Origin: an uncultured virus (IMG/VR IMGVR_UViG_3300020043_002236)
Lineage: Duplodnaviria; Heunggongvirae; Uroviricota; Caudoviricetes; Crassvirales
DNA length: 64,000 nucleotides
Virus record (IMG/VR): IMGVR_UViG_3300020043_002236
Coordinates: 1 to 64,000 of that record
Direction: 5' to 3' (one strand)
Position numbers and translations under genes: made by a program. The notes under the pieces were generated by a model. That model was not told where the DNA came from and ran no database searches. It saw nothing but the letters and a program-made list of their open reading frames with translations. Shown here piece by piece: positions 14,848 to 59,917 of this stretch (the first letter of the stretch is position 1; every line of letters starts with the position of its first letter).

Positions 14848-15047
14848 AACTTTTCTATTTCTTGTTTAAGTTCTTGCCAATATATAAATTCTTTATTTGG
14901 GAATTCAAAATTGTGCCAATCAATAGCGTCTAATATCTCATCAACTGCTATTAATGCACATTGTTTAGCTTGTTCAAATGCTAATGGATTCGGTTGAAAT
15001 TGCATCTTAATTACAATCTCTCTGGCTTTTATTTGGTGTTCGTTCAT
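14844..15047 (-). CDS. AKQCALIAVDEIL...KQEIEKL family protein
   Basis: Paralogue of 63482..63700 and 63697..63945. Confidence 0.75.
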   Translation of the reverse strand: MNEHQIKAREIVIKMQFQPNPLAFEQAKQCALIAVDEILDAIDWHNFEFPNKEFIYWQELKQEIEKL

Positions 15048-15340
15048 AGGTATAGTATTGCTTCGTCTTCGTTAATATCCTCGTCTTGTATCTCTAGTCT
15101 TAAGTTGTCTTGGTCTAGTATGGTTAGGAAGAATGTCCATGAGTTACCAGTCTTCCTTGCCCTAGTTGGAAACTTTTTTGATTCTAGTGTAGGTCTCTTA
15201 AATACAACCTTATTATCGTATACCTTGTACACAAATTCTTGATTGAACCAGTCGTTACTGATACTCACATTAAATCTGTACGGACATGTTGTGCTGTTAG
15301 GGTACAGCCTAACCTCGTTTTGCTTTATCGGTGTTCTCAT
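15044..15340 (-). CDS. Hypothetical protein
   Basis: 98 aa ORF, ATGA-coupled. Confidence 0.6.
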   Translation of the reverse strand: MRTPIKQNEVRLYPNSTTCPYRFNVSISNDWFNQEFVYKVYDNKVVFKRPTLESKKFPTRARKTGNSWTFFLTILDQDNLRLEIQDEDINEDEAILYL

Positions 15341-15549
15341 AACTTGCTTGTTTTTATAAATCCAATCTCTACTCCAATCTGAACGTCATCCCAGTTCAGT
15401 GCGTCTTCAAGGTCTTGTCTTGTTACTATCTGTGATTCACTCTCATCATCGCGAAGGGCAAAGATTGTTTTGCCATCGTGAAAGTATTGTATTGCATCGT
15501 GATAGCTTAGTATCTGCCATGCAAATCCGTCCTGTGTTATTTTTTCCAT
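15337..15549 (-). CDS. Hypothetical protein
   Basis: 70 aa ORF. Confidence 0.6.
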   Translation of the reverse strand: MEKITQDGFAWQILSYHDAIQYFHDGKTIFALRDDESESQIVTRQDLEDALNWDDVQIGVEIGFIKTSKL

Positions 15550-15630
15550 GTCTTTTTTATTTATTTACTACTACTACCATCATGGTAAAGAATACTGCCC
15601 ATAGCAGTATCACGTAGGCTATCTGTTTCT

Positions 15631-15912
15631 TCATAGTTCTGTTGCTTCTTTAATTAAATTTTCTGCTTCAATTAAATCTGATATATCTAAATCAGGTTGT
15701 ATTAATCTTTTGAGCATCTCCAACATTTCAGGAGCTTTTGATATTAGTAATGCGTTTGCTCTGAATTCTTCATCAGGCAATTCATCGCGCATATCTTGTC
15801 TTTTAGAGAACGCACAAATAACGGTGTCATCTCCTCCTGCACTGAAAACATAATGAGGAGTTGTTTTTATACAACAGCTCCACCACTTCCCTTTTGTTCC
15901 TTTAAATTCCAT
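15631..15912 (-). CDS. Phage hypothetical protein (FKGTKGKW...ANALLISKAPEML type)
   Basis: Common phage mini-protein pattern. Confidence 0.7.
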   Translation of the reverse strand: MEFKGTKGKWWSCCIKTTPHYVFSAGGDDTVICAFSKRQDMRDELPDEEFRANALLISKAPEMLEMLKRLIQPDLDISDLIEAENLIKEATEL

Positions 15913-15923
15913 ATCTTATTTGT

Positions 15924-16166
15924 TTAGTTATTAGGTACACAACAATTCGATGGGCATACTACTGCGCACTGCGGTGTATCGTGGAAGCCTACACATTCCG
16001 TGCACTTCTCCGCCACGATGTAGTATACATCGTCAGATAACGGCGCTTGTTTTACGTTGTCGTTCTTGTACGTCCATTGTGTACTTGGTTCGTATATTGC
16101 GTTGTTGGGACACTCCCACTCGCATAGTCCGCAGTTAATGCAACTATCTGTTATTTTGAGACTCAT
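15924..16166 (-). CDS. 2x[4Fe-4S] ferredoxin, YfhL-like
   Basis: CINCGLCEWECP and CTECVGFHDTPQCAVVCP. Confidence 0.92.
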   Translation of the reverse strand: MSLKITDSCINCGLCEWECPNNAIYEPSTQWTYKNDNVKQAPLSDDVYYIVAEKCTECVGFHDTPQCAVVCPSNCCVPNN

Positions 16167-16374
16167 ATTTTTGTCGTTCGATTAAAAGTTTTTCAGCTAT
16201 TTCGTAAGCGAATTCTGCTGATTCTTGTAACGTAGTTATATCTTGCCATAACGATGGGTTGCTTATTACCCCAGTAATTACTTGACCCGCGAAGTAGTCG
16301 CGTAGTGTCATGCCTGGATTGGACTTGTCGTCTGCGTGTTTTAATGGAAATGCTGTTGGGTTTTTAGTTTTCAT
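16144..16374 (-). CDS. Phage protein with AFP...GMTLRDYFA motif
   Basis: Widespread phage motif GMTLRDYFA. Confidence 0.75.
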   Translation of the reverse strand: MKTKNPTAFPLKHADDKSNPGMTLRDYFAGQVITGVISNPSLWQDITTLQESAEFAYEIAEKLLIERQKYESQNNR

Positions 16375-16768
16375 TGTTATAATATTTTATGAATTTGATT
16401 ACTGCGTTGTATGTTGCTTCTATTTTTGTTCTCTCGAATGTTTCCACAACTGGTAGTGGATATCTGTTGTCTACAATATTAACGGATGTCATTAGAATTT
16501 CAAAAACATATTGAGAAAATCCTTCTTTATCCTCTATCTCTTCTATCTTATCCACTGCTTGCATTAGCCAGTTCCAATCTAGATGAAATAGTAGTCGGTC
16601 TTCTGAGTGCCAGTCTCCACTTATGTAGTAGAATTTTTTCCGTCCCAAGTACCAATGATAGGAGTTCTCTATTAGCGTAGCTTCTATTGAGTCTATGCTT
16701 TTTGATGGGTAACCGATAAACTCGGCTATAAGTTTGTTGTTGTCTGCTATTGTGCACATAGTTCCCAA
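16364..16768 (-). CDS. Hypothetical protein
   Basis: NNKLIAEFIG...FHLDWNWLMQAVDKIE...AVIKFIKYYN. Confidence 0.7.
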   Translation of the reverse strand: MGTMCTIADNNKLIAEFIGYPSKSIDSIEATLIENSYHWYLGRKKFYYISGDWHSEDRLLFHLDWNWLMQAVDKIEEIEDKEGFSQYVFEILMTSVNIVDNRYPLPVVETFERTKIEATYNAVIKFIKYYNNEN

Positions 16769-17019
16769 GTATTAAGTTGTTTTACATTTTGTCGCGTCAA
16801 CCCCAGTTGGCTTACAATAAACTTGGCCAGTTTCTTGTTGCCTATTGTGTTGTTGTCAATCTCTGCCGTTCCAATTACATCAATGATTACTCTAGGCCCT
16901 ATACCTAAAACCCTTTGACAGAACTTTACGTCTTGGCCTAGGAAGAATTGTTTTCTGTTGTACTCTAGTGTCCAGTTGCGACCGAATCCGTAGTCGCCTT
17001 GTGTGATAATTACTCTCAT
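16747..17019 (-). CDS. Hypothetical protein (start revised to MRVIITQG)
   Basis: The track's 27-aa N-terminal extension lies in a tRNA-like element; A-rich leader before ATG 17019. Confidence 0.65.
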   Translation of the reverse strand: MRVIITQGDYGFGRNWTLEYNRKQFFLGQDVKFCQRVLGIGPRVIIDVIGTAEIDNNTIGNKKLAKFIVSQLGLTRQNVKQLNTWELCAQ

Positions 17020-17042
17020 GTTATTAATTAATTTAAGGTTAG

Positions 17043-17114
17043 TGAAGAGGGCAGGACCCGAACCTGCATTAAGATAGTATATTCTATCTTGCGTTACCAT
17101 TTCGCCACCTCTTC
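17043..17114 (-). ncRNA. tRNA-like RNA without a canonical anticodon loop
   Basis: Acceptor GAAGAGG/CCTCTTC, D-arm TGGCGAAATGGTAACGC, stem AGATAG-AATATA-CTATCT, T-arm GCAGG-TTCGGGT-CCTGC. Confidence 0.75.
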
Positions 17115-17263
17115 GTGTGCCAGTCTTTCCTAGCAGTCACTTATGTGTTGTTTTACGTCTTGAATTCAAATCTTTTCAATTCAGTGACCATACAAACGTA
17201 GCGATACAACCAACAACACGGCCTACATTTCAAAGTTGGAAAGGAGTTATGATGTATGGTCAC
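17115..17263 (-). ncRNA. Putative structured, pseudoknotted RNA abutting the tRNA-like element
   Basis: 11-bp stem 17184-17194/17253-17263; 8-bp pairing 17212-17219/17145-17152; terminal TGCTAG-GAAAGA-CTGGCA hairpin. Confidence 0.5.
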
Positions 17264-17474
17264 CTAGTCTTTTTATTGTTAGGTTGGTGCTTGTTTTAAT
17301 TCTCTCTAGCGTGTCCTCGTGCTTATCCTCGAACCACTTTGGTATATCTACAACTACTAGGTAGTCGTTAACTATCGTGTGCTCGAATGACTTCGGGATA
17401 AAGAACGGCTGACCACCATCGTCGATAGTCAGCGCGTTGTTAGATAGTTGTCTTGGGTATAGTTGTAGTGTCAT
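17247..17474 (-). CDS. Hypothetical protein
   Basis: 75 aa ORF (FFIPKS...IPKWF). Confidence 0.65.
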   Translation of the reverse strand: MTLQLYPRQLSNNALTIDDGGQPFFIPKSFEHTIVNDYLVVVDIPKWFEDKHEDTLERIKTSTNLTIKRLGDHTS

Positions 17475-17683
17475 AATCCTTTTTCTTTTTTAAATATTTC
17501 TAATACTTGTTCGTATGTTTTTAAAGTTTTATATACTTCTATTCCGTAATTACTTTTATCGAACCATTTAACAAACTCTAAAGCATAATCGTATGTTATG
17601 TTTTCTAATTCTATAATATTTTCTGCAACTGTTTCATTTGTTGGAGAATCGTGCCATTTTTGAAATTTTTCTTTTAAATTCAT
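17471..17683 (-). CDS. MNLKEKF...FKKEKGL paralogue
   Basis: 17601-17676 is identical to 354-429 (76 bp). Confidence 0.75.
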   Translation of the reverse strand: MNLKEKFQKWHDSPTNETVAENIIELENITYDYALEFVKWFDKSNYGIEVYKTLKTYEQVLEIFKKEKGL

Positions 17684-17849
17684 TATCGTAGTTTATTTAA
17701 GTTAAACACAAATTGACTACCATCTTCAAATTTGAACAATCCGTAATTCTTATTCTTTTCAATTAAAGTTCCTATTGAATCTTCTTTGAACTTGTATTTT
17801 GTTCCTAATTCCATTTTTACTAATGGTAAAAAAACTTTTTTATGTGTCA

Positions 17850-18173
17850 TTATCGTATGAAGTATTGGTTATCAAACTTGTAGCGTTGTCCGTTGTAGTT
17901 CTGTGCGTACACTAGTAGGTCGAACTGGTCTGTGCTTACCGCGATGCAGTTCTGTGTTAGTATCGTGGACAACTCTTCAATCTTCTTGATGAAGTGGCTA
18001 GTCCTAGCGTATGTACTCTCTAGTTCTACAATCAGAGTCGGCTCGTGCTCGTCCTCGTATCGTCCGATGCCGAACTTGTACGTGTCGATGTCGTAGTCCT
18101 CTCTTAACTTGTTGATGATTGCCTCTTGGCTCAATGGGTTGTTGTTTAATCCGATGTTTAAAGTTGCTTTCAT
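17850..18173 (-). CDS. Hypothetical early protein
   Basis: 107 aa ORF (LNIGL...EPTL...QNCIAV...FDNQYF). Confidence 0.7.
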   Translation of the reverse strand: MKATLNIGLNNNPLSQEAIINKLREDYDIDTYKFGIGRYEDEHEPTLIVELESTYARTSHFIKKIEELSTILTQNCIAVSTDQFDLLVYAQNYNGQRYKFDNQYFIR

Positions 18174-18242
18174 GATTAATTAATTTAGATTATTAAAAGT
18201 GTCTTTGTGTTACGCCCTTGTTGTCTCCGAATAGGAACTTGC

Positions 18243-18401
18243 TTATCTTGTTGTAGATTTTTGTCGCCATAATGATTTGCCTTTTTTTAAGATGTAATTT
18301 GATTGGTGCTTGTTTAGTCCGTGGTGGCTTGCCCAGTTTGTTGCGCTTAGCCAGTTGTTTACGTAGTCTAAATAGATACGTAGGATGTCGTTGTTAGTCA
18401 T
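18243..18401 (-). CDS. 52 aa early protein MTNNDILRIYLDYVNNWLS...
   Basis: Read manually; overlaps the stop of 18394..18648. Confidence 0.6.
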   Translation of the reverse strand: MTNNDILRIYLDYVNNWLSATNWASHHGLNKHQSNYILKKGKSLWRQKSTTR

Positions 18402-18648
18402 ATTTTTTAATTTTTACATAAGAAATAAATGTACCTTGAAAGTTAAATAACTCGTCATTACATTCTTCCATAAAATCATTTAGACTAAAAAACTGCGGAT
18501 AATCTTCGTCTTCGTCTTCTACGTTTAGATGTGATTTTAAATAATCTCTTAAGTCTGTATAACTTTCAAATACTTGTTCTTGTATCTCGTCACAAACTTT
18601 TCTTGCGTTTGTGTAATGTACTGGTATTGATACTATTGTTGTTTCCAT
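18394..18648 (-). CDS. Acidic early protein
   Basis: 19 D/E in 84 aa. Confidence 0.7.
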   Translation of the reverse strand: METTIVSIPVHYTNARKVCDEIQEQVFESYTDLRDYLKSHLNVEDEDEDYPQFFSLNDFMEECNDELFNFQGTFISYVKIKKYD

Positions 18649-18652
18649 TGTG

Positions 18653-18748
18653 TTAGTCTATTAAATAAGTTAGTAAATTAAATGTAATGATGATCAATAC
18701 GATCGTGATCTGTAGGTATAGTCTACCTTGCTTTTGTGATTTTGTCAT
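18653..18748 (-). CDS. 31 aa single-TM peptide MTKSQKQGRLYLQITIVLIIITFNLLTYLID
   Basis: Read manually; first ORF after ribozyme C. Confidence 0.55.
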   Translation of the reverse strand: MTKSQKQGRLYLQITIVLIIITFNLLTYLID

Positions 18749-18766
18749 GATGTTATTAATTAAATT

Positions 18767-18816
18767 GGTTAAGACTCCCGAAGGAGTTTCGTCTACTTAA
18801 GACTCGTCAGTTAACC
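18767..18816 (-). ncRNA. Type I hammerhead ribozyme (HHR-C)
   Basis: GGUUAA-CUGACGA-GUCU uaagu AGAC-GAAA-CUCC uucg GGAG-UC^UUAACC. Confidence 0.92.
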
Positions 18817-19024
18817 TACAACTTTCTATTTCAGTTAGGTACTCGTCGTAGAAGCTATTGAATAAATCTTGTGCCTCTTCCGTATATCTAACTTCATCAT
18901 CTGTTTCAATCTCAATTCCGTTTGGAAATTCAAAGCTATAGTCTGATTCATTTAGACCTTCTGAATAGTTGTACAATTTTTGAGATGCTAAATTACTTGC
19001 TAATTCAATTTCGTTGATGTTCAT
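18797..19024 (-). CDS. Highly acidic early protein between two hammerheads
   Basis: 20 D/E versus 3 K/R in 75 aa; last codons run into HHR-C. Confidence 0.75.
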   Translation of the reverse strand: MNINEIELASNLASQKLYNYSEGLNESDYSFEFPNGIEIETDDEVRYTEEAQDLFNSFYDEYLTEIESCRLTDES

Positions 19025-19041
19025 AATAATTAATTTTTAAT

Positions 19042-19091
19042 GGTTAAGACGCCTCTCGGCGTTTCGATCATTTAGATCTCGTCAGTTAACC
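19042..19091 (-). ncRNA. Type I hammerhead ribozyme (HHR-B)
   Basis: GGUUAA-CUGACGA-GAUC uaaau GAUC-GAAA-CGCC gaga GGCG-UC^UUAACC. Confidence 0.92.
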
Positions 19092-19285
19092 TATCTTCTA
19101 AACCCGAACGCATTACCTTGTTCGTCTATGTAGTACAATGCGTTTGATGTATAGCTTCCGTAGAATGATCCGCCAGTTGCTAGAGCTACTATTAAGAAGC
19201 AGGCTCCTGCATTTTTTCTTGCCTTGATTAGTTTAGTGAATTTCTCGTTTGTAATTTCGTTTGCTTTGTTGATAATTGATTTCAT
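19091..19285 (-). CDS. First early ORF, between HHR-A and HHR-B
   Basis: 64 aa ORF; its TAG stop abuts HHR-B. Confidence 0.65.
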   Translation of the reverse strand: MKSIINKANEITNEKFTKLIKARKNAGACFLIVALATGGSFYGSYTSNALYYIDEQGNAFGFRR

Positions 19286-19299
19286 AATAATAAATAATT

Positions 19300-19354
19300 A
19301 ACGTTTCGAGGTTCTGCCTCTCATCAGTACAGCGAGTTGTTAGCTGTATACGTT
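19300..19354 (-). ncRNA. Type III hammerhead ribozyme (HHR-A)
   Basis: AACG-UA^-UACAGC uaacaacuc GCUGUA-CUGAUGA-GAGG cagaa CCUC-GAAA-CGUU. Confidence 0.92.
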
Positions 19355-19691
19355 GCATCCTCATGACTATGTTTCCTTGTCGGTGTCGTGACGATGGCAC
19401 TGGGCTTTTAACCAGAGTGTGCTTACCCTATTTTATCCTGTTTTATCAGTCTGCCACTTTTTACATCTGTGGTCTCGATGGTTTGTTCGTTAGTGTAGGT
19501 GATTGATAGTTGATGTCTTTAGGATTGTAAAGCCTTTCTCGTCTCGTCCCTTTACTTTCACTGCCTCTCATTGGGTCAGGTAGGGATGAAGTTTCTAGTA
19601 TGCTATCCTACTGATTATCAAGCAGTTAGAAGCTAACTTGCTGGAAATCAATCACTTACAATAAAATTAAGAACGTGTCGCTCATTTGAAC
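19349..19691 (-). ncRNA. Putative structured ~340-nt leader RNA of the early transcript
   Basis: No long ORF; nested stems; bounded by a promoter and the HHR-A cleavage site. Confidence 0.5.
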
Positions 19692-19695
19692 ACTG

Positions 19696-19703
19696 CAATA
19701 CTA
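19696..19703 (-). promoter_or_regulatory. Putative early promoter -7 element
   Basis: TAGTATTG (1 mismatch to TAnnTTTG) with upstream TTG, heading the minus-strand run. Confidence 0.5.
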
Positions 19704-20024
19704 CGCAGTTAGTTTTAGTCTCACAAGAAAAAGTTTAATTATTTTTGATTTTGTTCGAATTTTTATGACATTCTCAGTGAATTGATTATTTTGATGAGAA
19801 TAATGCAACGAATAGTATACAATATTGCATATTATGTAACAAAAAATAACGAAGTTTGTTTAATGTGTTGATTATCAGTGTCTTACGTATTGTCTTTGCT
19901 TACTATTGGATTTGTGTGGGGAAGGTTTGGACGTGGGCTATTTCAAGCCTCTGTATATCTACGTGTAATACCAATTCACGCGCAAATATTCTCATGACGC
20001 GGGAAGTCCCGTAAACACTGGGAT

Positions 20025-20301
20025 TATGTCGAGTTTTGAAAAAATATGTCGGAAATATGTCAAGAATTTTGAGCTAACTTATTGATAATCAACAATCTAT
20101 GTTAATATGTCGTTTTTTACTATCCTAAATAGAATTTTTTTAAAAATATAAAATATATAAAATCATATATAGCCTATATAGGAAAAAAAACGTCAGTACG
20201 ACATGAGCTTTAACTTAACCCTTGCTATTGCTGGAATGTTGCTAAAAAAAACCGACATAAAATCGACATGCTCCCGACATATTTAATACCAACTTGACAT
20301 A
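20025..20301. other. Putative replication origin: inverted iteron arrays around an AT-rich core
   Basis: TATGTC(G/A) at 20025, 20045, 20056, 20106; inverse (C/T)GACAT at 20199, 20253, 20264, 20275, 20295; at the strand switch. Confidence 0.6.
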
Positions 20302-20333
20302 AATACGCTATCATATCGTAATAAATTAATTCG

Positions 20334-20341
20334 TATCTTTG
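20334..20341 (+). promoter_or_regulatory. -7 promoter element
   Basis: TATCTTTG before ORF 20371. Confidence 0.6.
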
Positions 20342-20370
20342 TCATGAATAATTTTAAATAACAAAACAAA

Positions 20371-20862
20371 ATGAAAACATGTAGTAAGTGTAAAGAAAAA
20401 AAGGAACTTTCTGATTTTAATATTGATAAAAGTAAATTGGATGGTCTTCGACCTGATTGTAAAATTTGCAGAAAAGAGGTTAGTAAAAAATATATTAGAC
20501 CATTAGAAAAAAAACCGCCAAAACCAAAAAGTTTAATGTTATTGGCTTATGAAGAAAAAGAACTTAAAAGAAAACAAAAAGCAATTCAATATAGAATTGA
20601 TAATAAAGAAAAATTAAAACAATATAGAGATTCTAAAAAAGAAGAAAAAAGATTGTATGATAAGCGATATAAGATAATTAATAAGGAAGTAATAAATCAA
20701 AAAGATAAGATATATAAAGAAGCAAACAAAGAACGATTAAAACAATACAGAGACTCGCGCAAGGAATTAAAGAGAGAGTATGATAAGCAGTATAAGATTG
20801 ATAACAAAGAACGCATCAACGAGAGAGATAGATTATATCAGCAACGTAAACGATTGGAATAG
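20371..20862 (+). CDS. Zn-finger plus charged helical repeat protein (endonuclease-like N-terminus, no nuclease domain seen)
   Basis: CSKC...CKIC; duplicated KE.LKQYRDS.KE.KR.YDK.YKI.NKE.IN unit. Confidence 0.65.
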   Translation: MKTCSKCKEKKELSDFNIDKSKLDGLRPDCKICRKEVSKKYIRPLEKKPPKPKSLMLLAYEEKELKRKQKAIQYRIDNKEKLKQYRDSKKEEKRLYDKRYKIINKEVINQKDKIYKEANKERLKQYRDSRKELKREYDKQYKIDNKERINERDRLYQQRKRLE

Positions 20863-21154
20863 TTTGGTATGGATCATATCAGTTACTCTCGGTAAAAAAA
20901 GTGAACTATAGGTACGTGTACGTGCGCGTATAGTAGTACGTGTATGTGCGTGATATAGTAGACACCTGCGTGTAGGGGTAGTGCAGTCCAGAAAAAGCCA
21001 AAAATTCTCGGCAAGTCCAGTGAAATCAGACCCCTACCCTTGATTTTAAGTCGTTTTCGTTTTGGCACCCCATCCGCAATATCTATATATAACCCAAACC
21101 CCCCACATATCTAACATTTTTTAAAAAAGTCTTGCGGCAATCGAAAATAATATT

Positions 21155-21162
21155 TATATTTG
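21155..21162 (+). promoter_or_regulatory. -7 promoter element
   Basis: TATATTTG, TTG at 21132, ATG 4 nt downstream. Confidence 0.65.
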
Positions 21163-21166
21163 CCAA

Positions 21167-21388
21167 ATGAAAGACGAATACATTAAGTTACGAACACAGG
21201 ACGACATGCCGATCAGCTGGTTCCATCGTTACTTTGTAGAGAAGACGGGTAGGAACATTCACTTCAATCACTTCCACATCTTCTTTATGAACGGGGACAT
21301 TCACGAGATAATGAACTACCTGGACAAGCAGTTCGACTTGACCGTAGTCATCAGTAAAAACGGTAGCGTAATTAAAGTAGTAGGTTAA
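21167..21388 (+). CDS. Hypothetical protein
   Basis: 73 aa ORF directly after a promoter. Confidence 0.7.
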   Translation: MKDEYIKLRTQDDMPISWFHRYFVEKTGRNIHFNHFHIFFMNGDIHEIMNYLDKQFDLTVVISKNGSVIKVVG

Positions 21389-21744
21389 ACATTGAATACC
21401 TTTGTAAATTATTCCAAACGTTTGAAATTGATAACGCAGAAACAATAGAACAGTATCTTTAGATATTTGAGGAACTGGCAATAATTTACATAAAGATACT
21501 ATCAGTAATGATAGACGCATTATCCCCTTGAGAAAGGTGAAACAAGCAACGTTAAAAATAGGTAGGTGTTGTATTTACCAAGATGCGAATGAGTTCTCAG
21601 CAAGTAGCAATAATTAAACTTAACAAATGGGTGTAGAGAGGAACTGCCAAATTGAAAACTACGTGACCCTACTCAAATAGAATTATACTAGAGATGGAAA
21701 CACAGAATATGTATAATATCATCACTGAAAGAGGGTGCTAATAT

Positions 21745-21867
21745 GACCGAGTGGCGGAATGGTAGACGCATAGGTTTTAAAGTGTCGGTAATCAAGATGA
21801 GTGTATAAGCAATAGAAGCTCTGAGAGAAAAACACACCTTTCACAGGTTCGAATCCTGTCTCGGTCA
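21745..21867 (+). ncRNA. tRNA-like RNA (Leu-type D-arm) with a 60-nt insert in place of the anticodon loop
   Basis: Acceptor GACCGAG/CTCGGTC, TGGCGGAATGGTAGACGC, ACAGG-TTCGAAT-CCTGT; AGGT(21772)/ACCT(21836) enclose 60 nt. Confidence 0.75.
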
Positions 21868-21973
21868 CGATAAGCGGTCCCTGGTTTAAGAGGTTAAACA
21901 CATCCGGGCTAATCTAAAACCTCCAGGCTGATCACCTGAAAAGTGCGAGTTAGGAATCCGCTGCCTAACAACA

Positions 21974-22047
21974 GGTCCCATAGCTCAGTTGGTTAGAGCG
22001 TCTGACTCATAATCAGGATGTCCATGGTTCGAGCCCATGTGGGACCA
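21974..22047 (+). tRNA. tRNA with CAT anticodon (Ile2-like or elongator Met)
   Basis: Full cloverleaf: GGTCCCA/TGGGACC, TCTGA-CTCATAA-TCAGG, CATGG-TTCGAGC-CCATG; no encoded CCA. Confidence 0.92.
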
Positions 22048-22416
22048 CAAACAGTACCTTCGACGCTACCCGTAGAACAGCGTCCCAGCGAAGGTCGTTT
22101 ACTTAAGGCATCGGTTTAGGCCTGGGCAGTCCCGGGCGCCGATGCTTTTACATATAATAATGCGATATAATACATTTTTATATGTTATAACGTATAGGAG
22201 AGTACTTTTCCCAACACTAAATGCACTATACCGCATATAAAGTTGGCAAATACCGGCGATGATTGCCGTTATTATATAGGTGGGTAGATATGTTCATTTA
22301 AAATCAGCGTTCATTATCAATGAACATTCAAATATAATGAACAATGTTCGATATTCTAGACATTTCTAGACATTTTGTGTATAATAACAATCAAATAATT
22401 TTATTACCTTTGTAGC

Positions 22417-22557
22417 ATGACAGAAATAGAAATTCAATCAAGATTCAATATCGGTCCAGCAATTGGATGGGGATATTACGGTAAGGACGAGGAGTTCGAC
22501 TACGGAGAGTTAATAATATATCTAACATTTATAAGTATACACATAAGATGGGAATAA
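22417..22557 (+). CDS. 46 aa protein MTEIEIQSRFNIGPAIGW..., probably leaderless
   Basis: Read manually; TACCTTTG (22405-22412) lies 4 nt before the ATG. Confidence 0.6.
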   Translation: MTEIEIQSRFNIGPAIGWGYYGKDEEFDYGELIIYLTFISIHIRWE

Positions 22558-22733
22558 AACTAGAAAACAACAACAAGCCGATGCCAACACAGGAGATCGG
22601 ATTGTACAGAATGGCCAAAGCTAAAAAGACTATGCACGAGGCTAAAGAGATGATGGAAAAATCTATGACGATGGCTAACGCCATTAACCTAGCTAAGACT
22701 ATTCCGACAATGTCGTTCATGAAAAAGAAATAA
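22548..22733 (+). CDS. Small basic Met-rich protein
   Basis: 61 aa ORF followed by a terminator. Confidence 0.55.
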   Translation: MGIKLENNNKPMPTQEIGLYRMAKAKKTMHEAKEMMEKSMTMANAINLAKTIPTMSFMKKK

Positions 22734-22770
22734 AAAATCCATTTTTTGCCTAAACATTTTTGTTTAGAAC

Positions 22771-22798
22771 GAGCACCCTAACGGGTGCTTTTGTTTTT
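22771..22798 (+). terminator. Intrinsic terminator
   Basis: GAGCACCC-TAAC-GGGTGCTT then T-rich tail. Confidence 0.75.
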
Positions 22799-22811
22799 AA
22801 TAAATAATATG

Positions 22812-22819
22812 TATATTTG
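22812..22819 (+). promoter_or_regulatory. -7 promoter element for groEL
   Basis: TATATTTG. Confidence 0.65.
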
Positions 22820-22842
22820 TCGAGAATTAAATCTAATATATA

Positions 22843-24447
22843 ATGACAAACTTCGGATACAGTCCAAAAGTTCTAGACTTTGAACAAGAAGGACGAGAAA
22901 AATTAATCAACGGCATCACCACGATTGCCAAGGCAGTAAAGAGCACACTAGGACCGCGCGGAAAGACCGTACTAATCGAGTCGATCAACCACACGCACGG
23001 TATTACAGTAACTAAGGACGGCGTAACAGTCGCTAAATCAATTGACCTACTAGACCCGGTAGAGAACCTGGCAGTAAAGATGATGAAAGAAGCGGCCGAC
23101 CGCACCGCAACAAGCGCAGGTGACGGTACCACAACGGCTATCGTACTAACAGAGGCACTGGTAAAGCACGGTCAGGACATGATCACTAGTAACCTGAACA
23201 CAACAGAGGTGATCAGACAGATCAACGACACAACAAACAAGCTAATAAGCCGACTAGAGAAGCGCTCAAAGAAGGTAACGGGTAAGACGTTGAACAACGT
23301 GGCTTCGATATCTGCCAACAACGACTCTGAGATTGGTAATTTGATCTCTGAAGCGTACGACAAGGTGGGTAAGACCGGCATCGTAACGGTTGAGAACTCA
23401 CAGACAGCTGAGACCTACTGCGAGTACACTAACGGTATCAAGGTAAACAGAGGGTACACGTCACAACTGTTCGTGAACGACCACAGAAAGGACGAGTGCA
23501 TACTAGAGGACGTACACATTCTAGTTACAGATCAGGAGATAAACAACATCCTATCGATCGAAAACGTGCTTAGAGACGTGATCCAAACAGGAAAAAAACT
23601 ATTAATTATCGGGCCGTGCAGTCAAAATGTAATTAACACACTGGCAATCAACGTAGTACAGAAAGGACTTAAGTTCTGTAACATCACACCGCCTGAGTTT
23701 GGGTATAAGAGAAACGAGCTGATGAACGACATCGCGTTGGCAGTAGGTGCCAAGTACTTCTCTGAGCAGACTGGAGACGACTTAAGTCTTATGACAATCG
23801 AGTCACTTGGTAAGGCTAAACGTGTAATCGTTGGAAGGGAATCGGCATCAATTATAAAATCAGAATCGACCACTGACGTGGTAGAAGAAAGAGTAGCTCA
23901 GTTATGGCAGGCTCACGACCTGAGTAATAAAAAGAACGATCAGGACTTTATCAAGGAGCGTATCGCGAGCTTAACGGGAGGAATTGCTGTGATTCACGTC
24001 GGAGGAAACTCTGACCTAGAACAGAAAGAACGCAAGGACAGGGTAGACGACGCAGTATGCGCGGTACGATCTGCACTGGAGGAGGGCATCTTACCTGGTG
24101 GTGGAGTAGCGCTGTTCAACGAGTCGTACGCGATCATTGCAGATGCAGACGACATGATCGAAGACATCAGCGCCGAGCAGTACGCGGCAATGCATATCGT
24201 GGCAAGAGCCATTCAGGCACCACTACTACAGATATTTGAGAATGCAGGACTAGACGGATACGAGTTGATGGAAGGATGTCAAGGATACACTGTTGGATTC
24301 GATATCAAGAACATGACAACCGGCGACATGTACAAGATGGGAGTAATCGATCCATTAAAGGTAACAAAGAACGCGCTGAAGAATGCCGTATCAGTATCGA
24401 CAACAGTGCTTAGTACTAACGCAATTATAACAATGGCAAGAGCATAA
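22843..24447 (+). CDS. groEL: Phage chaperonin GroEL
   Basis: TLGPRG, TKDGVTVAKSI, AGDGTTTA, EEGILPGGG, GVIDPLKV; no GGM tail. Confidence 0.97.
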   Translation: MTNFGYSPKVLDFEQEGREKLINGITTIAKAVKSTLGPRGKTVLIESINHTHGITVTKDGVTVAKSIDLLDPVENLAVKMMKEAADRTATSAGDGTTTAIVLTEALVKHGQDMITSNLNTTEVIRQINDTTNKLISRLEKRSKKVTGKTLNNVASISANNDSEIGNLISEAYDKVGKTGIVTVENSQTAETYCEYTNGIKVNRGYTSQLFVNDHRKDECILEDVHILVTDQEINNILSIENVLRDVIQTGKKLLIIGPCSQNVINTLAINVVQKGLKFCNITPPEFGYKRNELMNDIALAVGAKYFSEQTGDDLSLMTIESLGKAKRVIVGRESASIIKSESTTDVVEERVAQLWQAHDLSNKKNDQDFIKERIASLTGGIAVIHVGGNSDLEQKERKDRVDDAVCAVRSALEEGILPGGGVALFNESYAIIADADDMIEDISAEQYAAMHIVARAIQAPLLQIFENAGLDGYELMEGCQGYTVGFDIKNMTTGDMYKMGVIDPLKVTKNALKNAVSVSTTVLSTNAIITMARA

Positions 24448-24448
24448 C

Positions 24449-24748
24449 ATGTGGACAGCTAATAACACATCAGAAAACAAAATGAGTAAATTTCAACCAA
24501 TAAATAAGTACATAGTAATAAACGCAATTGACGAGCAGATCCAGACAGAGTCTGGACTGCTGCTGTCAGGAAGTGATAACGAAAAGTTTCGCTACAAAAA
24601 AGGCCAGGTCATTCGACCTGGCACCAATGTAGACTGTGTAAAAGAGGGGGACCTTATATATTATGATAAGGGAGCCGGTTACACTATGCTAATCAACGAT
24701 ATTCCGTACACGATCATACTAGAGCGTGACGTTGTCGTTGTCCTTTAG
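24449..24748 (+). CDS. groES: Co-chaperonin GroES (start may be 24482)
   Basis: QPINKYIVI, TESGLLL, VKEGDLIYY, ERDVV; follows groEL. Confidence 0.88.
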   Translation: MWTANNTSENKMSKFQPINKYIVINAIDEQIQTESGLLLSGSDNEKFRYKKGQVIRPGTNVDCVKEGDLIYYDKGAGYTMLINDIPYTIILERDVVVVL

Positions 24749-32428: not shown

Positions 32429-32692
32429 ATGACAAAGATTAGCCAATACCCGGACGATACTGAAATAACAGTTGATGATAAGTTAGTAGGAACAGACGCG
32501 GAAAATAGTTTAGAAACAAAAAACTTTACATTTGCTGACGTAATTAGTTTTCTACAACAGAACTTACTTATAATGAACACACCTTCACTTACAGGCGTAC
32601 TAGAGTACGCAGACAATGCGGCGGCTGTTACAGCTGGACTTGCTGTAGGTAAGATCTACAGAACAGGGGATGTTTTAAAAATTGTACATTAA
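32429..32692 (+). CDS. Small virion-associated protein
   Basis: N-terminus resembles the tail fibre N-terminus; YADNAAA..AGL..G.IYRTG. Confidence 0.65.
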   Translation: MTKISQYPDDTEITVDDKLVGTDAENSLETKNFTFADVISFLQQNLLIMNTPSLTGVLEYADNAAAVTAGLAVGKIYRTGDVLKIVH

Positions 32693-32703
32693 TAAATAAT
32701 TCG

Positions 32704-32711
32704 TATATTTG
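32704..32711 (+). promoter_or_regulatory. -7 promoter element
   Basis: TATATTTG. Confidence 0.6.
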
Positions 32712-34059: not shown

Positions 34060-36283
34060 TTTATACTCGGTTGTAAAGAATCATATTCCTCCAACTGTTC
34101 TAGCTAACAAGAACAATAAAAAGTCTTGGCAGTACGGATACGACGAGAAGTATGACATGATTGTTATATCTAAGAACGGAACCATAGGTGAAGTTTATAA
34201 TATAAACGGACTTCTTATAGCTCTGCCTAAAACTCCAGATGTAGTATACTCTAGAGATAAGAAAAAAGAAAATCAATACTGGCAACCATTTGAATATCCT
34301 AAGGAGTTAGATAAAATAAAGTCTATATTTCACTGGCATGATATGCCTAATGACTTCAAGTCTAAGTGGGTTGACTATATAGAGACTGAGTTCGACAGAA
34401 GAGAGAACGGATTCTTCTTCATGAATAATGGAGTGGAGACTTATATGACTGGATCTCACTACATGTACTGTCAATGGACAAAGATTGACGTCGGACTTCC
34501 TGACTTTCGTGAGGCTAATAGAATATTCTTTATTTACTGGGAGGCATGTCGCGCAGACGATAGATGCTTCGGTATGGTTTACTTAAAGATTAGACGTTCT
34601 GGATTTTCTTTTATGGCTTCATCGGAGGCTGTAAATATAGCTACATTAGCGAAAGACGCTAGGATTGGTATCCAGTCTAAGACAGGGGGCGACGCTAAGA
34701 CTATGTTTACTAATAAGGTCGTTCCTATATCTAGCAATCTACCATTCTTCTTTAAACCGATCATGGATGGTATGGACAAACCTAAGACTGAACTTGCCTT
34801 CAGGGTTCCTGCATCTAAGATTACAAAGAAGAATATGTACGACAGTTCAGAAGCTGAACTAGAAGGATTAGATACGTCTATTGACTGGAAGAACACGGCT
34901 GATAACAGTTATGACGGGGAGAAATTAGTATATCTTGTTGAGGACGAGTCTGGTAAGCTAGAAGCTCCTAACAATATCCTTAACGGATGGCGAGTTAGAA
35001 AGACTTGTCTTCGTTTAGGTAGTAGAATTATCGGTAAATGTATGATGGGTTCAACTCCTAACGCGCTTGCTAAGGGTGGATCTAACTTTAAGAAGCTATA
35101 CGAGGATTCAAATATAAAAACACGTAACGAGAACGGCCAGACAAAATCAGGTATGTACTCTCTTTACATTCCAATGGAGTGGAACTTCGAGGGTTATATT
35201 GATAGATACGGAATGCCTGTATTTAGAAAGCCAGAAACTCCAGTAACTGGAATAGACGGTAGACTAATAACAAACGGAGCTATAGATTATTGGGAGAATG
35301 AGGTTGCGTCTTTAAAGAATGATGCAGATGCATTGAACGAGTTTTATAGACAGTTCTCCAGAACAGAGTCTCACGCGTTTAGAGATGAGAGCAAGGCGTC
35401 TTTGTTTAACTTAACAAAGATCTATCAACAGATAGACTATAATGACTCTCTAATAAGAGATCAAATACTAACTAGAGGATCGTTTCACTGGAAGAACGGA
35501 GAGAAGGACACTCAGGTTATTTGGACTCCAGATCCAAGGGGTAGATTCCTTGTTTCATGGATTCCTAATTCAGCAATGCAGAACCAAGTAGTTTATAAGA
35601 ATGGAAATAAGTACCCTGGTAATGAGCACATTGGTGCTTTTGGCTGTGACCCTTACGATATATCCGGAACTGTCGGAGGAGGAGGATCAAATGGATCTCT
35701 ACACGGACTTACTAAGTTTAATATGGATAATGCTCCTAGCAACCATTTCTTCCTTGAGTATATAGCTCGTCCTCAGACAGCAGAGATATTCTTTGAAGAG
35801 GTTCTTATGGCTTGTGTATTTTACGGTATGCCAATTCTAGTGGAAAATAATAAACCTAGACTACTATATCACTTTAAGAATAGAGGATACAGAGGGTTTT
35901 CAATGAACAGACCGGATAAGCACTTCACGAATCTGTCAAAAACAGAAAGAGAGCTTGGAGGTATACCTAATTCGTCTGAAGATGTGAAACAATCGCACGC
36001 GGCCGCTATTCAATCTTATATAGAAAAGTATGTTGGAATGGATACTGAAGGAACTTATAGAGATTCTGATGAGATGGGTGACATGTATTTCACTAGAACT
36101 ATAGAGGAGTGGGCTAAATTTGATATAAATAATAGAACTAAATTTGATGCTGCAATCAGTTCAGGACTAGCTATTATGGCTAATCAGAAGAACATATACT
36201 TAGCGGCAAAGAAAGAGTCGAAAATAAGTGTTAATTTTGCAAAGTATAATAACTCAGGAACTAGAAGTGAACTTATTAGATAA
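34037..36283 (+). CDS. terL: Terminase large subunit
   Basis: LKIRRSGFS Walker A-like, VEDESGK, GSTPN, FGCDP RNase H-like nuclease, ENNK. Confidence 0.88.
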   Translation: MQKNDQNNLYSVVKNHIPPTVLANKNNKKSWQYGYDEKYDMIVISKNGTIGEVYNINGLLIALPKTPDVVYSRDKKKENQYWQPFEYPKELDKIKSIFHWHDMPNDFKSKWVDYIETEFDRRENGFFFMNNGVETYMTGSHYMYCQWTKIDVGLPDFREANRIFFIYWEACRADDRCFGMVYLKIRRSGFSFMASSEAVNIATLAKDARIGIQSKTGGDAKTMFTNKVVPISSNLPFFFKPIMDGMDKPKTELAFRVPASKITKKNMYDSSEAELEGLDTSIDWKNTADNSYDGEKLVYLVEDESGKLEAPNNILNGWRVRKTCLRLGSRIIGKCMMGSTPNALAKGGSNFKKLYEDSNIKTRNENGQTKSGMYSLYIPMEWNFEGYIDRYGMPVFRKPETPVTGIDGRLITNGAIDYWENEVASLKNDADALNEFYRQFSRTESHAFRDESKASLFNLTKIYQQIDYNDSLIRDQILTRGSFHWKNGEKDTQVIWTPDPRGRFLVSWIPNSAMQNQVVYKNGNKYPGNEHIGAFGCDPYDISGTVGGGGSNGSLHGLTKFNMDNAPSNHFFLEYIARPQTAEIFFEEVLMACVFYGMPILVENNKPRLLYHFKNRGYRGFSMNRPDKHFTNLSKTERELGGIPNSSEDVKQSHAAAIQSYIEKYVGMDTEGTYRDSDEMGDMYFTRTIEEWAKFDINNRTKFDAAISSGLAIMANQKNIYLAAKKESKISVNFAKYNNSGTRSELIR

Positions 36284-59025: not shown

Positions 59026-59240
59026 GTTCTTTTTAAGTGACTGGCTGTCCAGTTCTTTTTTTTAATTATTTTTTTTAACGATTCCTTATCGTTAGTTGCT
59101 AGTATCATAAGATATAGCGCATCCCTTGTACTTGTGGCATAATGCACAGTAAACGTGTTTAGATCTAGTAAGACTACCCTGTCATCAAAGTAGTCTACTA
59201 GAAATCTTTTTCTAAGCTTTTTATTTAACTTATGTTTCAT
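59022..59240 (-). CDS. Hypothetical protein
   Basis: 72 aa ORF, ATGA-coupled. Confidence 0.55.
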   Translation of the reverse strand: MKHKLNKKLRKRFLVDYFDDRVVLLDLNTFTVHYATSTRDALYLMILATNDKESLKKIIKKKNWTASHLKRT

Positions 59241-59917
59241 TTTAAAAATATTTCTGGGTTCTTATAATACCATTTAAAGTTCTTGTATGTTTTTAATTTT
59301 CCTCTCATACAACTACTTACATTTCCTATGTTATATTTAAGTTCTCTCTTTATATCCATCAAACAATTCCATTCCTTTATCACGTTATCTTCCCTGTCGC
59401 ACTGTAATACCTTGATACTTTTAGGATTATTTTCTGAGAAGAATCCTCTCCTATTGCTAACCCTTCCTTTTCTTCCTCGGCTTTTATAAACTTCCTCGCT
59501 ATATACCCTTCCTTTATTAGCTCTTGATATTTTATCTTTAGTCTCTTGAGTGTGGGTTTTTCCAAGCCAATGTTTATTTCCTTTAGCAGCTTCAGACATT
59601 TTTATCAATGTTTTCGCAGATACCTTACCACTTTTGTCGTTAGTTTTTGTTAATCTACAATTCAATCCTTTATTTAAACATTGAAAAAACTCTTGATAAT
59701 ACCTTTCATAATTATTTAGTTCTGATTCTAAACATTCTTTTATTACTTCGAATTTATGTTTGTCAACTCCGTACTTTATAAACGATCTATGAAGTTTTAT
59801 TTGCCCTGTATTTTTTACATACATTCTCAAGTAACTATCGAATCTTTTTTCTATATTAACACTCTGTCCGATATATACTTTATCGGACGGAGATGTTATT
59901 TTATATATACCTATCAT
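59237..59917 (-). mobile_element. GIY-YIG homing endonuclease gene (NUMOD3/NUMOD1-like)
   Basis: IGIYKITSP..KVYIGQS; HTQETKDKIS; C-terminal HTH-like segment. Confidence 0.88.

Follow-up and report, generated by a model that had tools for sequence, protein, structure and literature searches.

Three hammerhead ribozymes, designated A, B and C, stand at the start of a leftward operon of small genes in this phage, where they would probably cut the polycistronic mRNA and release a folded leader and two single-gene RNAs. The window, that is, the whole stretch of 64,000 nucleotides analysed, is essentially the complete 64-kb genome of a podophage of the Flavobacterium/Cellulophaga kind, with genes for terminase, portal and tail fibre, and in the operon about 49 small ORFs precede replication genes. 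The assignment of A, B and C as hammerhead ribozymes is well supported by the complete core, the three-helix geometry, the covariation of homologues and the conserved place in related phages (Table 1).

Hammerheads cleave themselves 3' of the nucleotide H17, which leaves 5'-OH and 2',3'-cyclic phosphate ends. Transcription of the operon would start in the divergent control region, probably at about 19690, and the nascent RNA would fold into the three hammerheads and cut itself, with ends of this chemistry. Four products are predicted: a leader RNA of about 340 nt with a conserved pseudoknot, cut off by A; a 301-nt RNA (19348-19048) coding for the 64-aa protein, which would begin with the two hairpins of A and end with B; a 275-nt RNA (19047-18773) coding for the 75-aa protein, with C at its end; and the remaining long polycistronic mRNA, beginning with 5'-OH UUAACC and reaching its first AUG 24 nt on. 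The cut of A would leave nearly the entire ribozyme on the 5' end of the downstream mRNA, and that of B would leave the ribozyme on the 3' end of the upstream RNA. Because no hammerhead beyond A, B and C was found in the genome, only the first two of the about 49 genes would become monocistronic. We infer the start and strand of transcription, the cleavage itself and its effects on stability and translation, as well as, from gene order alone, the "early" timing.

Table 1. Features at the head of the leftward operon (positions in the window)
Feature	Position	Strand	Remarks
Putative promoter of the leftward transcript	19726-19696	minus	TTG 19726-19724, 20-nt spacer, TAGTATTG 19703-19696; predicted start ~19690
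Leader RNA, ~340 nt	19690-19349	minus	Putative 5' end; predicted 3' end A19349 with cyclic phosphate, released by A
Conserved leader motif	19481-19405	minus	H-type pseudoknot, hairpin P_b, conserved AUAAAAUAGGGUAAG
Hammerhead A, type III	19354-19300	minus	Descriptor scan; predicted cut 19349/19348
64-aa ORF, hydrophobic middle	19285-19091	minus	Between A and B; last base of the stop TAG is the first base of B
Hammerhead B, type I, 50 nt	19091-19042	minus	Descriptor scan; predicted cut 19048/19047
75-aa ORF, acidic	19024-18797	minus	Between B and C; stop UAA in loop II of C
Hammerhead C, type I, 50 nt	18816-18767	minus	Descriptor scan; predicted cut 18773/18772
31-aa ORF, hydrophobic	18748-18653	minus	First gene of the remaining polycistronic RNA; predicted 24-nt leader starting 5'-OH UUAACC

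Structure and Rfam scores of the three motifs

The preliminary description had placed three complete hammerheads on the minus strand, one of type III (A) and two of type I (B and C), and a compact descriptor scan found all of them there, each with stems of 6/4/5 bp. In A, stem III is AACGU/ACGUU with the A at 19349 as H17, stem I has 6 bp and a 9-nt loop, and stem II is GAGG/CCUC with the loop CAGAA, followed by GAA. B and C have the same stem I (GGUUAA/UUAACC) and differ in stem II (GAUC/GAUC in B, GUCU/AGAC in C) and in stem III (ACGCC-GAGA-GGCGU in B, ACUCC-UUCG-GGAGU in C). The hammerhead core consensus given in the main text of Perreault et al. (2011, PMC3088659) is C3 U4 G5 A6 N7 G8 A9, G12 A13 A14, A15.1-U16.1, G10.1-C11.1 and an H17 that is not G. 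Every position of this invariant core was intact in the three motifs (CUGAUGA, G...C, GAA, A-U and A17 in A; CUGACGA, G...C, GAA, A-U and C17 in B and C, with C17 at 19048 and 18773, respectively).

When folded in isolation, A, B and C each had the exact three-way junction as the minimum-free-energy structure. The minimum-energy structure of C in a 131-nt context still held the hammerhead fold; that of A in a 136-nt context was devoid of stem III, with a rival pairing between the core and the start of the 64-aa ORF. No tertiary contact between stem I and loop II was identifiable in B and C, whose stem I is only 6 bp long, and activity at cellular Mg2+ is thus an assumption.

The compact descriptor gave three matches in the window against a mean of 0.005 in 200 dinucleotide shuffles, only one of which contained any match (n = 1/200). 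A looser descriptor, which yielded a match in 6 of 60 shuffles, added two hammerhead-like matches on the plus strand, at 35922-36029 (108 nt) and 50921-51059 (139 nt); both have long loops, lie inside large ORFs and were taken as chance. A search with a type I covariance model, filters off, recovered no third, degenerate type I copy in the window, the next best match scoring 12.5 bits.

At the Rfam gathering thresholds the entire window gave two tRNA matches only and no hammerhead. B aligned end to end with Hammerhead_1 (RF00163) at 27.5 bits (cut-off 34; E = 3.1e-4 in a search of 1.3 kb and 3.7e-6 in one of the entire genome), C scored 12.9 bits against the same model, and A had no Rfam match at E ≤ 10. 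None of the three reached a gathering score in the Rfam check proposed in the preliminary description. Type III homologues of A in related phages aligned end to end with Hammerhead_3 (RF00008) at 35.2 and 36.3 bits (E about 1e-6, cut-off 48.5). The gathering cut-off is an operational criterion rather than a biochemical one, and the models are largely built on other subfamilies. The phage units have the same core, three-way junction and circular permutations as RF00163 and RF00008, but a conserved stem I (GGUUAA) and a 5-nt loop II (U-N-A-N-U) of their own set the phage type I units apart as a subfamily, and all scores were below the cut-offs. An assignment of C to the RAGATH-1 hammerhead (RF03152) was rejected: it scored 21.8 bits (E = 0.77) where 56.3 are needed, and the aligned "hairpin" falls in the 75-aa coding region.

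Related phages and the predicted leader RNA

A set of 79 loci from related phages was picked solely by the GroEL gene of the phage. All the hammerhead calls in these loci (n = 86/86) were on the strand opposite to GroEL and upstream of it, and the 786,905 bases that follow from the start of GroEL yielded none. At least one hammerhead was present in 38 of the 45 loci having at least 4 kb upstream of GroEL. The other seven loci carried none, and the nearest GenBank record (MW202828.1) and Cellulophaga phage Calle_1 had no match with either model at E ≤ 0.01, indicating that the hammerheads are dispensable for such phages. A blastn search of 18000-20400 against GenBank phages gave no match. The same layout, with its elements unannotated in GenBank, was found in a cultured phage, Flavobacterium phage vB_FspP_elemoE_6-9C (host Flavobacterium sp. 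BAL314), whose terminase is 46% identical: a type III unit (18099-18151 of its record) lies 16 nt before gp59 at a divergent intergenic region, and a type I unit (16304-16361) lies between gp64 and gp66.

Helix covariation was scored in an alignment of 31 type I sequences (A1) and another of 35 type III sequences (A2). Both sides changed in 10 of 15 type I pairs (0.492 vs 0.124 in shuffles) and in 13 of 17 type III pairs (0.661 vs 0.186 in shuffles); the rows of both alignments were preselected by a descriptor that demands pairing, which makes percentages of paired positions circular. Loop II (U-N-A-N-U) and the stem I sequence were conserved among the type I units, as were the loops of stems I and II among the type III units, but no particular tertiary contact emerged from either pattern. 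Two versions of stem II and two of stem III occurred in every possible combination, one in B and locus L135, one in C, L130 and L132, one in L147 and L151, and one in L129, a pattern that is independent of the pairing preselection. The differences between B and C had been described as compensatory variation; the stems do differ and remain paired, but helix modules recombined among relatives explain them better.

In alignment, the putative promoter falls on a block, TAnnTTTG and then CAGTGTT, that is conserved just before the leader motif in the cultured phage and the relatives. The putative promoter departs from the Bacteroidetes-type -7 box at one position, and no perfect consensus was found on the minus strand between 19355 and 20400. 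Downstream of it, the leader motif contains a predicted H-type pseudoknot formed by S1 (19480-19477 with 19467-19464, loop 1 GAGA) and S2 (19472-19469 with 19457-19454, loop 3 UAAAAA), and then hairpin P_b (19449-19447 with 19440-19438), which precedes the conserved AUAAAAUAGGGUAAG. Covariation of S1 and S2, in rows that had not been selected for S1/S2 pairing, scored 0.364, which 0 of 500 shuffles reached (0.149 in shuffles), and at most 0.134 when the pairing was slid.

The motif had no match in Rfam. A twister type P5 assignment (RF02684) was discarded, with 13.5 bits (E = 1.7-9.3, cut-off 37.6) in the window only and no twister match in the leaders of the relatives. A preQ1-like riboswitch, presumably of similar topology, was also discarded, with no queuosine or 7-deazaguanine gene among 72 ORFs and no Rfam match. 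Nor was the leader an unusually stable fold, its overall folding energy being ordinary (z = -0.23). That A ends a conserved structured leader RNA had been missed in the preliminary description.

The RNA data were contigs of two RNA-library runs, which held shares of 0.09 and 0.07 of the stretch; no run contained half of its sampled words. Contigs from the two libraries mapped to 19368-19662 and tell neither strand nor ends. None of the RNA contigs listed bridged 19349/48, 19048/47 or 18773/72, a DNA contig spans 19301-19691, and the listed RNA contigs of one study end 15-19 nt short of the 19349/48 site, none of which is evidence of cleavage. Word depth for the contig on 19475-19662 and for the contigs on the 64-aa ORF was 1827 vs 341 in run X19 and 17.7 vs 12.8 in run X20, figures that cannot rank the parts of the transcript.

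It is quite possible, if not the likelier case, that the main task of A is to set the 3' end of a functional non-coding RNA, pseudoknotted and derived from the initial 135-340 nt of the early transcript, with mRNA trimming as a side effect, a reading compatible with the main explanation. Wherever the pseudoknot was found, a type III hammerhead lay 3' of it: each of the 16 nhmmer matches, some of them on overlapping loci of one contig, was on the same strand and 5' of such a unit, and in a scan of the collection the 13 true motif copies among 100 pattern matches were exactly those with a hammerhead core 135-190 nt downstream. The S1/S2 covariation points the same way, as does the retention of the motif in the cultured phage despite the divergence of its terminase; in the relatives the motif starts about 10-40 nt past the conserved promoter-like box, and RNA-library contigs of two studies cover it. 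On the other hand, many relatives with a type III unit had no motif match or only half of one, the stretch between motif and ribozyme varies in sequence and length, the folding energy is ordinary, the limits of the motif and its 3' half are provisional, and abundance cannot be ranked by contig depth.

Gene joints and possible cassette exchange

The preliminary description had each hammerhead at a gene boundary, and this held: the 64-aa ORF ends on the first base of B and the 75-aa ORF inside C, which encodes its final residues LTDES and its stop codon. The next AUG follows 14 nt past A, 17 nt past B and 18 nt past C. In the GroEL set, 29 of 35 type I units had the next AUG 13-24 nt beyond their 3' end, and 25 of 37 contained the upstream stop. 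Across diverse phages, 102 distinct type I units showed the AUG 10-25 nt downstream in 81 cases and the upstream stop inside the ribozyme in 70, whereas the same 10-25 nt spacing was found at 8 of 91 random positions; the idea of a standard leader, advanced earlier, gains support from this comparison. Type I units adjoin their genes flush, with the stop usually within the ribozyme, and as many as three reading frames can meet a stop there: GGUUAA contains UAA, CUGA contains UGA, and loop II often holds one or the other as well. In the preferred reading, that of a self-cutting operon mRNA, the type I unit would be a compact gene joint comprising the upstream stop codon, a structured 3' end and a short AU-rich downstream leader that lacks a Shine-Dalgarno sequence.

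The genes between the ribozymes are hypervariable cassettes. In the nearest relatives nothing matched the inter-ribozyme ORFs at the DNA level, despite flanks of 80-97% identity, and the sole homologous islands there were the ribozyme and its leader, as in 19020-19092. The 77 ORFs directly behind hammerheads fell into 48 clusters, 28 of them singletons. The 64-aa ORF belongs to no PHROG or Pfam family, and its DNA homologues (82-83% identity) were absent from the nearest relatives and present only in the more distant L147/L009 (one contig) and L157. The 75-aa ORF had no DNA-level match in the locus of any relative; its protein has 33 metagenomic homologues of 71-105 aa, and the LTDE tail is present in 4 of the 33 aligned. 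A DNA homologue of the 31-aa ORF was found in ten loci, some of them overlapping, and directly behind a type I hammerhead in five.

Tentatively, the type I units could be above all portable cassette joints, in which the conserved core and stem I would offer short homologous stretches for swapping small early genes between phages, each incoming gene automatically gaining a stop codon, a cut and a leader, and cleavage is secondary to modularity. The restriction of homology to ribozyme and leader, the number of clusters and singletons and the stops in up to three frames agree with this proposal, and the occurrence of all four stem II/stem III combinations implies crossovers within the ribozyme. 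Against it, phage early regions are hypervariable even where there are no ribozymes, no hammerhead borders the 376-nt indel at 17468-17843, recombination is read from sequence patterns rather than observed, and the strict conservation of the catalytic nucleotides argues for selection on cleavage itself.

Coupling of cleavage to translation is unlikely. Here a ribosome that terminates within the unit would melt both stem I and the core, which would tie cutting to how strongly the upstream gene is translated; the stop does overlap the ribozyme in 25/37 and 70/102 type I units, and C itself encodes the last five codons. The overlap, however, occurs in interchangeable registers (-1, -6, -10, -20) and is missing in about a third of the units, and the encoded tail is found in only 4/33 of the protein family, which looks like compaction rather than a sensor.

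Less probable still is circularisation of the B-to-C unit, in which a hammerhead would form again from the two ends and either the ribozyme itself or RtcB would join them, giving a viroid-like circular mRNA of 275 nt. This unit does start with UUAACC and end with a ribozyme carrying the stem I strand GGUUAA, B and C having stem I in common, and circular or spliced products were raised as a possibility in the main text of Perreault et al. (PMC3088659), which reports them as undetected. Successive type I units of the close relatives L135, L138, L133 and L003 differ in stem I, and the A-to-B unit could not rebuild a hammerhead. A scheme with one enzyme strand and many substrate sites was also rejected, since GTCTTAACC (at most one mismatch) occurred 7 times against 14.7 expected, with exact copies only in B and C. 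That A, B and C are chance matches or dead relics can practically be dismissed, for although every Rfam score is sub-threshold, three were seen where 0.005 are expected per window, all core positions are intact, and place, spacing and covariation are kept in the relatives.

Comparison with known hammerhead systems

Engineered insulators such as the synthetic RiboJ use a hammerhead to remove a variable 5' leader and leave a fixed structured 5' end. The likeness of A to RiboJ is functional only: A, placed between the promoter-proximal leader and the translation start, would likewise remove the leader and give a fixed, structured 5' end.

In prophages, hammerheads cluster around single genes or short blocks, and three tandem arrangements cleave in vitro; processing into single-gene mRNAs was already hypothesised in that study (main text of Perreault et al. 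2011, PMC3088659). The present cluster resembles these in having complete hammerheads of mixed type on one strand around small changeable phage genes, with A, B and C bracketing two individual genes, the 64-aa and 75-aa ORFs, on the coding strand. It differs, judging from passages of that paper, in belonging to a lytic-type Flavobacteriia podophage family, mostly metagenomic, in the fixed order of promoter, pseudoknotted leader, type III unit and type I units, and in type I units that abut their genes, the ribozyme harbouring the stop codon and the next AUG coming about 17 nt later. In haloviruses HF1/HF2, an early polycistronic transcript has the HHphage hammerhead 13 nt upstream of its first ORF, with a mapped 5' end within three nt of the cut (PMC3088659, main text). 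Both it and A stand directly before the first early gene, but HHphage comes from an archaeal virus and is a single-copy variant ribozyme needing high Mg2+, for which the passage cited reports no conserved upstream leader motif.

The VIPR phage systems (bioRxiv 2026, PMC13142463), in the portion of the report consulted, likewise have hammerheads scattered through phage RNA arrays, which cut these into units; their units are non-coding guide RNAs, whereas those described here are conserved small protein genes. We found no description in the literature searched of the ribozymes or leader motif of this Flavobacteriia phage family, and the supplementary alignments of Perreault et al. (2011) may already list members of the subfamily. 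On the role of bacterial and phage hammerheads, a passage of a 2019 review states that "additional work is needed".

The phage is a clean but ordinary example of a layout known in phages since 2011, and it introduces no new principle. As a system for asking what hammerheads do, its family is unusually clean, with a fixed layout and dozens of natural variants whose helices covary and whose cargo genes are swapped. The cultured vB_FspP_elemoE_6-9C, grown on Flavobacterium sp. BAL314, carries the same elements, and in it end mapping and core mutants are ordinary experiments. Somewhat speculatively, the family may have a two-layer RNA design, in which the type III ribozyme matures a pseudoknotted leader across these Flavobacteriia phages, the cultured member included, and the type I ribozymes serve as portable stop-cut-leader joints with their cores as crossover points for exchanging small early genes between phages. 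If this were true, the ribozyme would shape genome evolution besides RNA processing.

Hammerhead motifs in the window and their covariation

Both a reading of the minus strand and our own descriptor scan recovered three complete hammerheads (A, B and C), at exactly the coordinates assigned to them in the preliminary description. Motif A has a stem I of 6 bp closed by a 9-nt loop, the core CUGAUGA, a stem II of GAGG/CCUC with loop CAGAA, and then GAA; B and C have stem I (GGUUAA/UUAACC) and the core CUGACGA in common, and their stems II and III are distinct yet fully paired. The minimum-energy structure of each motif folded in isolation was the hammerhead junction. When folded in a context of 131-136 nt, C retained its fold, B retained it in the centroid structure, and A retained stems I and II but not stem III, whose place was taken by a rival pairing between the core and the beginning of the next ORF. 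The compact descriptor matched three times in the window, against a mean of 0.005 in 200 dinucleotide shuffles, only one of which had any match. Two extra loose plus-strand matches, which lie inside large ORFs and have long loops, were at the chance level given by the shuffles and were discarded.

No hammerhead was called in the window by Rfam at gathering thresholds: B scored 27.5 bits on Hammerhead_1 (RF00163) against a cut-off of 34 (E = 3.1e-4 in 1.3 kb, 3.7e-6 genome-wide), C reached 12.9 bits, and A had no Rfam match even when the search was restricted to 241 nt. A covariance model built from type I units and run over the window with filters off returned B and C only, indicating that the genome holds just three hammerheads. 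Judged on sequence and predicted structure, A, B and C agree with hammerheads in every testable respect, falling short only of the operational cut-offs of Rfam.

Features of the window and their coordinates
Feature	Positions	Strand	Description
Hammerhead A	19354-19300	-	Type III; stem III AACGU/ACGUU; A17 at 19349; descriptor scan
Hammerhead B	19091-19042	-	Type I, 50 nt; C17 at 19048; descriptor scan
Hammerhead C	18816-18767	-	Type I, 50 nt; C17 at 18773; descriptor scan
64-aa ORF	19285-19091	-	Between A and B
75-aa ORF	19024-18797	-	Between B and C
Conserved leader element	19481-19405	-	Upstream of A, within the leader (19349 to ~19690)
Homologous promoter-like box	19703-19696	-	One mismatch; TTG 20 nt upstream
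Rightward genes	from 20371	+	HNH/Lar-like, GroEL, Cpn10, M15 peptidase, tail fibre (PHROG/Pfam)
Rightward genes, continued		+	Large terminase, portal, very large virion proteins (PHROG/Pfam)
Leftward genes	19285 to ~190	-	Some 49 ORFs, mostly small and without family (PHROG/Pfam)
Leftward genes after the small ORFs		-	PD-(D/E)XK-like exonuclease, DUF3127, primase-helicase, helicase

A scan of the collection for the type I core plus stem I yielded at least 126 stretches in viral contigs, and our descriptor detected at least 163 type I and at least nine type III units in at least 103 of those loci, with some overlap. In a gapless alignment of 31 type I units of 50 nt, 10 of 15 pairs varied on both sides; the covariation score was 0.492, compared with 0.124 when shuffled and at most 0.077 when slid. 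Among 35 aligned type III units the corresponding figures were 13 of 17 pairs and a score of 0.661 (0.186 shuffled). Because the descriptor used to pick these rows admits paired helices only, the near-100% pairing in the alignments is circular, a caveat that does not extend to the variety of pair types.

Conservation and gene context of the ribozymes

Relatives were picked by their GroEL protein, encoded 3.5 kb from the ribozymes, in a search blind to hammerheads; it matched 210 stretches, 201 of them coding for a relative, and the final set comprised 79 distinct loci. At least one hammerhead was present in 38 of the 45 loci that extend 4 kb or more upstream of GroEL. All 86 hammerhead calls in the 79 loci lay upstream of GroEL and on the opposite strand (86 in 457,375 upstream bases versus 0 in the 786,905 bases counted from the start of GroEL); two of the calls share a single core. 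The order in closer relatives (GroEL 75-100% identical) was invariably one type III unit and then zero to three type I units; more distant relatives in this set carried two or three type III units, or type I alone.

Both hammerheads of the cultured Flavobacterium phage vB_FspP_elemoE_6-9C (NC_055854.1) are unannotated in its record: a type III unit (61.4 bits on our own model, 36.3 bits on RF00008) lies 16 nt before gp59 at a divergent intergenic region, and a type I unit lies between gp64 and gp66. The annotated 35-aa gp65 (18873-18980 in L209, the fetched locus of this phage) overlaps the type I hammerhead (record positions 16304-16361) on the opposite strand, and is probably a spurious gene call. 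Neither the closest GenBank record nor Cellulophaga phage Calle_1 had a hammerhead.

In the GroEL set, the next AUG-started ORF began 13-24 nt from the 3' end of the type I unit in 29 of 35 cases, and the stop of the upstream ORF fell inside the ribozyme in 25 of 37, in registers -1, -6, -10 or -20. For diverse phages, among the matches listed, the next start was 10-25 nt away in 81 of 102 distinct type I units, as compared with 8 of 91 random positions, and the upstream stop lay within the unit in 70 of 102. Stop codons are therefore on offer in the type I unit at GGUUAA (UAA), at CUGA (UGA) and, in many cases, within loop II. Placement was looser for type III than for type I, the next AUG being at most 27 nt away in 26 of 51 units of the GroEL set. 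In the window, the first base of B is also the last base of the 64-aa ORF, and the 75-aa ORF uses a UAA within loop II of C as its stop codon; its final LTDES and that stop (18797-18816, minus strand) are encoded by stem I, core and loop II of C. The 75-aa protein represents a real family (33 homologues, 58-95% identical), and the overlap looks like compaction rather than a conserved protein feature, because the ribozyme-encoded tail LTDE is present in only four of the 33 aligned proteins, most homologues stopping short of it.

The flanks (15000-18400 and 19680-24500) were about 70-97% identical to near relatives, in which the two ORFs between the ribozymes were unmatched and the only islands of similarity were the ribozymes and short leaders. 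DNA homologues of the 64-aa ORF were found in more distant relatives only, and none of the 75-aa ORF in any fetched locus; the 77 ORFs directly behind a hammerhead fell into 48 clusters, including 28 singletons. The two versions each of stem II and stem III in B and C occurred in all four combinations among the relatives' loci (that of B also in L135, that of C also in L130 and L132, and the others in L147 and L151, and in L129), which points to candidate crossovers within the ribozyme. The differences between B and C had been read as compensatory variation; the full pairing of the differing stems stands, but given these four combinations the differences are largely whole-helix exchange.

Elsewhere on this strand, a 376-nt segment (17468-17843) with two small minus-strand ORFs (17471-17683 and 17683-17850) was bypassed by contigs of all four sequencing runs compared (joint 17467 to 17844) and was missing from every near relative compared, indicating a strain-specific insertion; no hammerhead was found at its edges.

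Predicted leader RNA, putative promoters and phage genome

The leader, the RNA 5' of the predicted cut of A at 19349/19348, contains a conserved element with 16 nhmmer matches (some on overlapping loci of one contig), all on the same strand and 5' of a type III unit, the cultured Flavobacterium phage included. A loose-pattern scan of the collection gave 100 matches, of which 13 were true copies, and a hammerhead core followed at a distance of 135-190 nt in exactly these 13. In structure the element is an H-type pseudoknot with a first helix (S1) of 4-5 bp of free sequence, loop 1 GAGA, a second helix (S2) CCAC/GUGG and an A-rich loop 3; on its 3' side come a hairpin whose loop is A-rich and then the conserved purine-rich AUAAAAUAGGGUAAG. 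S1 and S2 covary (0.364, against 0.149 shuffled, with 0 of 500 reaching the observed value, and at most 0.134 slid) across 17 rows unselected for S1 pairing. Rfam returned nothing for the element, its sole match being to twister at 13.5 bits, in the window only and absent in relatives; the element is an uncatalogued conserved RNA motif.

Relatives carry a conserved promoter-like box (TAnnTTTG, then CAGTGTT) 10-40 nt before the leader motif, and the homologous box in the window predicts transcription from about position 19690, which would make the leader some 340 nt long. Contigs from two RNA libraries map to 19368-19662 and 19119-19333, and show neither strand nor ends. Perfect copies of TTG-N17-21-TAnnTTTG, which we take to be the Bacteroidetes promoter type, stand directly before plus-strand genes at 21132-21162, 22791-22819 (24 nt before GroEL) and 32682-32711; the leftward operon has a one-mismatch version only. 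The ORF-free divergent control region holds at least eight copies of the word TATGTCG/CGACATA in both orientations (20020-20302), which could be operator or iteron sites, as well as 38-nt inverted arms (20024-20061 and 20265-20302).

The window, with a GC content of 35%, comprises bases 1-64000 of a 64,053-base linear IMG/VR virus record (CheckV completeness 100), and its PHROG and Pfam matches yield a phage gene map. By terminase (tblastn, 87 records), the closest GenBank record was an uncultured podovirus (73% identity), and the closest cultured phages were Flavobacterium phages of the elemo group (46%), then Cellulophaga, Tenacibaculum and Maribacter phages. Upstream of the start codons in the region lie AU-rich stretches that lack a Shine-Dalgarno sequence, in keeping with a Bacteroidota host. 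A GIY-YIG/NUMOD3 homing-endonuclease gene (59237-59917, minus strand) is flanked by genes for a DNA-repair exonuclease and a MazG-like protein, near a ThyX gene (61397-62041). The only tRNA called by both Rfam and ARAGORN was a tRNA-Met (21974-22048); Rfam alone called one at 21745-21867 (plus strand, 43.8 bits), which has 54 extra nucleotides inserted at the anticodon loop, and ARAGORN alone placed an unusual tRNA-like element, its 'anticodon' just two bases long, at 17042-17114 on the minus strand, that of the operon.

Proposed processing of the transcript

Processing of the transcript by hammerheads, as proposed in the preliminary description and by Perreault et al. (2011, PMC3088659), is the best-supported reading. 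Perreault et al. describe prophage hammerheads that flank single genes or short gene blocks, and propose that long phage transcripts are cut into operon- or gene-length mRNAs; they report three tandem arrangements that cleave in vitro, and, immediately ahead of the first early ORF of a halovirus, a hammerhead with a cut site that matches a mapped 5' end. The arrangement of A, B and C resembles the clustered phage hammerheads described there and is a member of that known class. A 2019 review still regards the purpose of bacterial and phage hammerheads as unsettled.

By such processing, the type III unit A would remove the leader and itself form the structured 5'-OH end of the mRNA, and each type I unit would stay attached to the upstream RNA at its 3' end, so that the next cistron after a type I cut would begin with 5'-OH UUAACC and about 17 further AU-rich nt, then AUG; we infer that stability and translation may be affected. 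The hammerhead finding is real, well conserved, experimentally tractable and not new in kind; the contribution of this analysis is the anatomy of the ribozyme units in this phage family.
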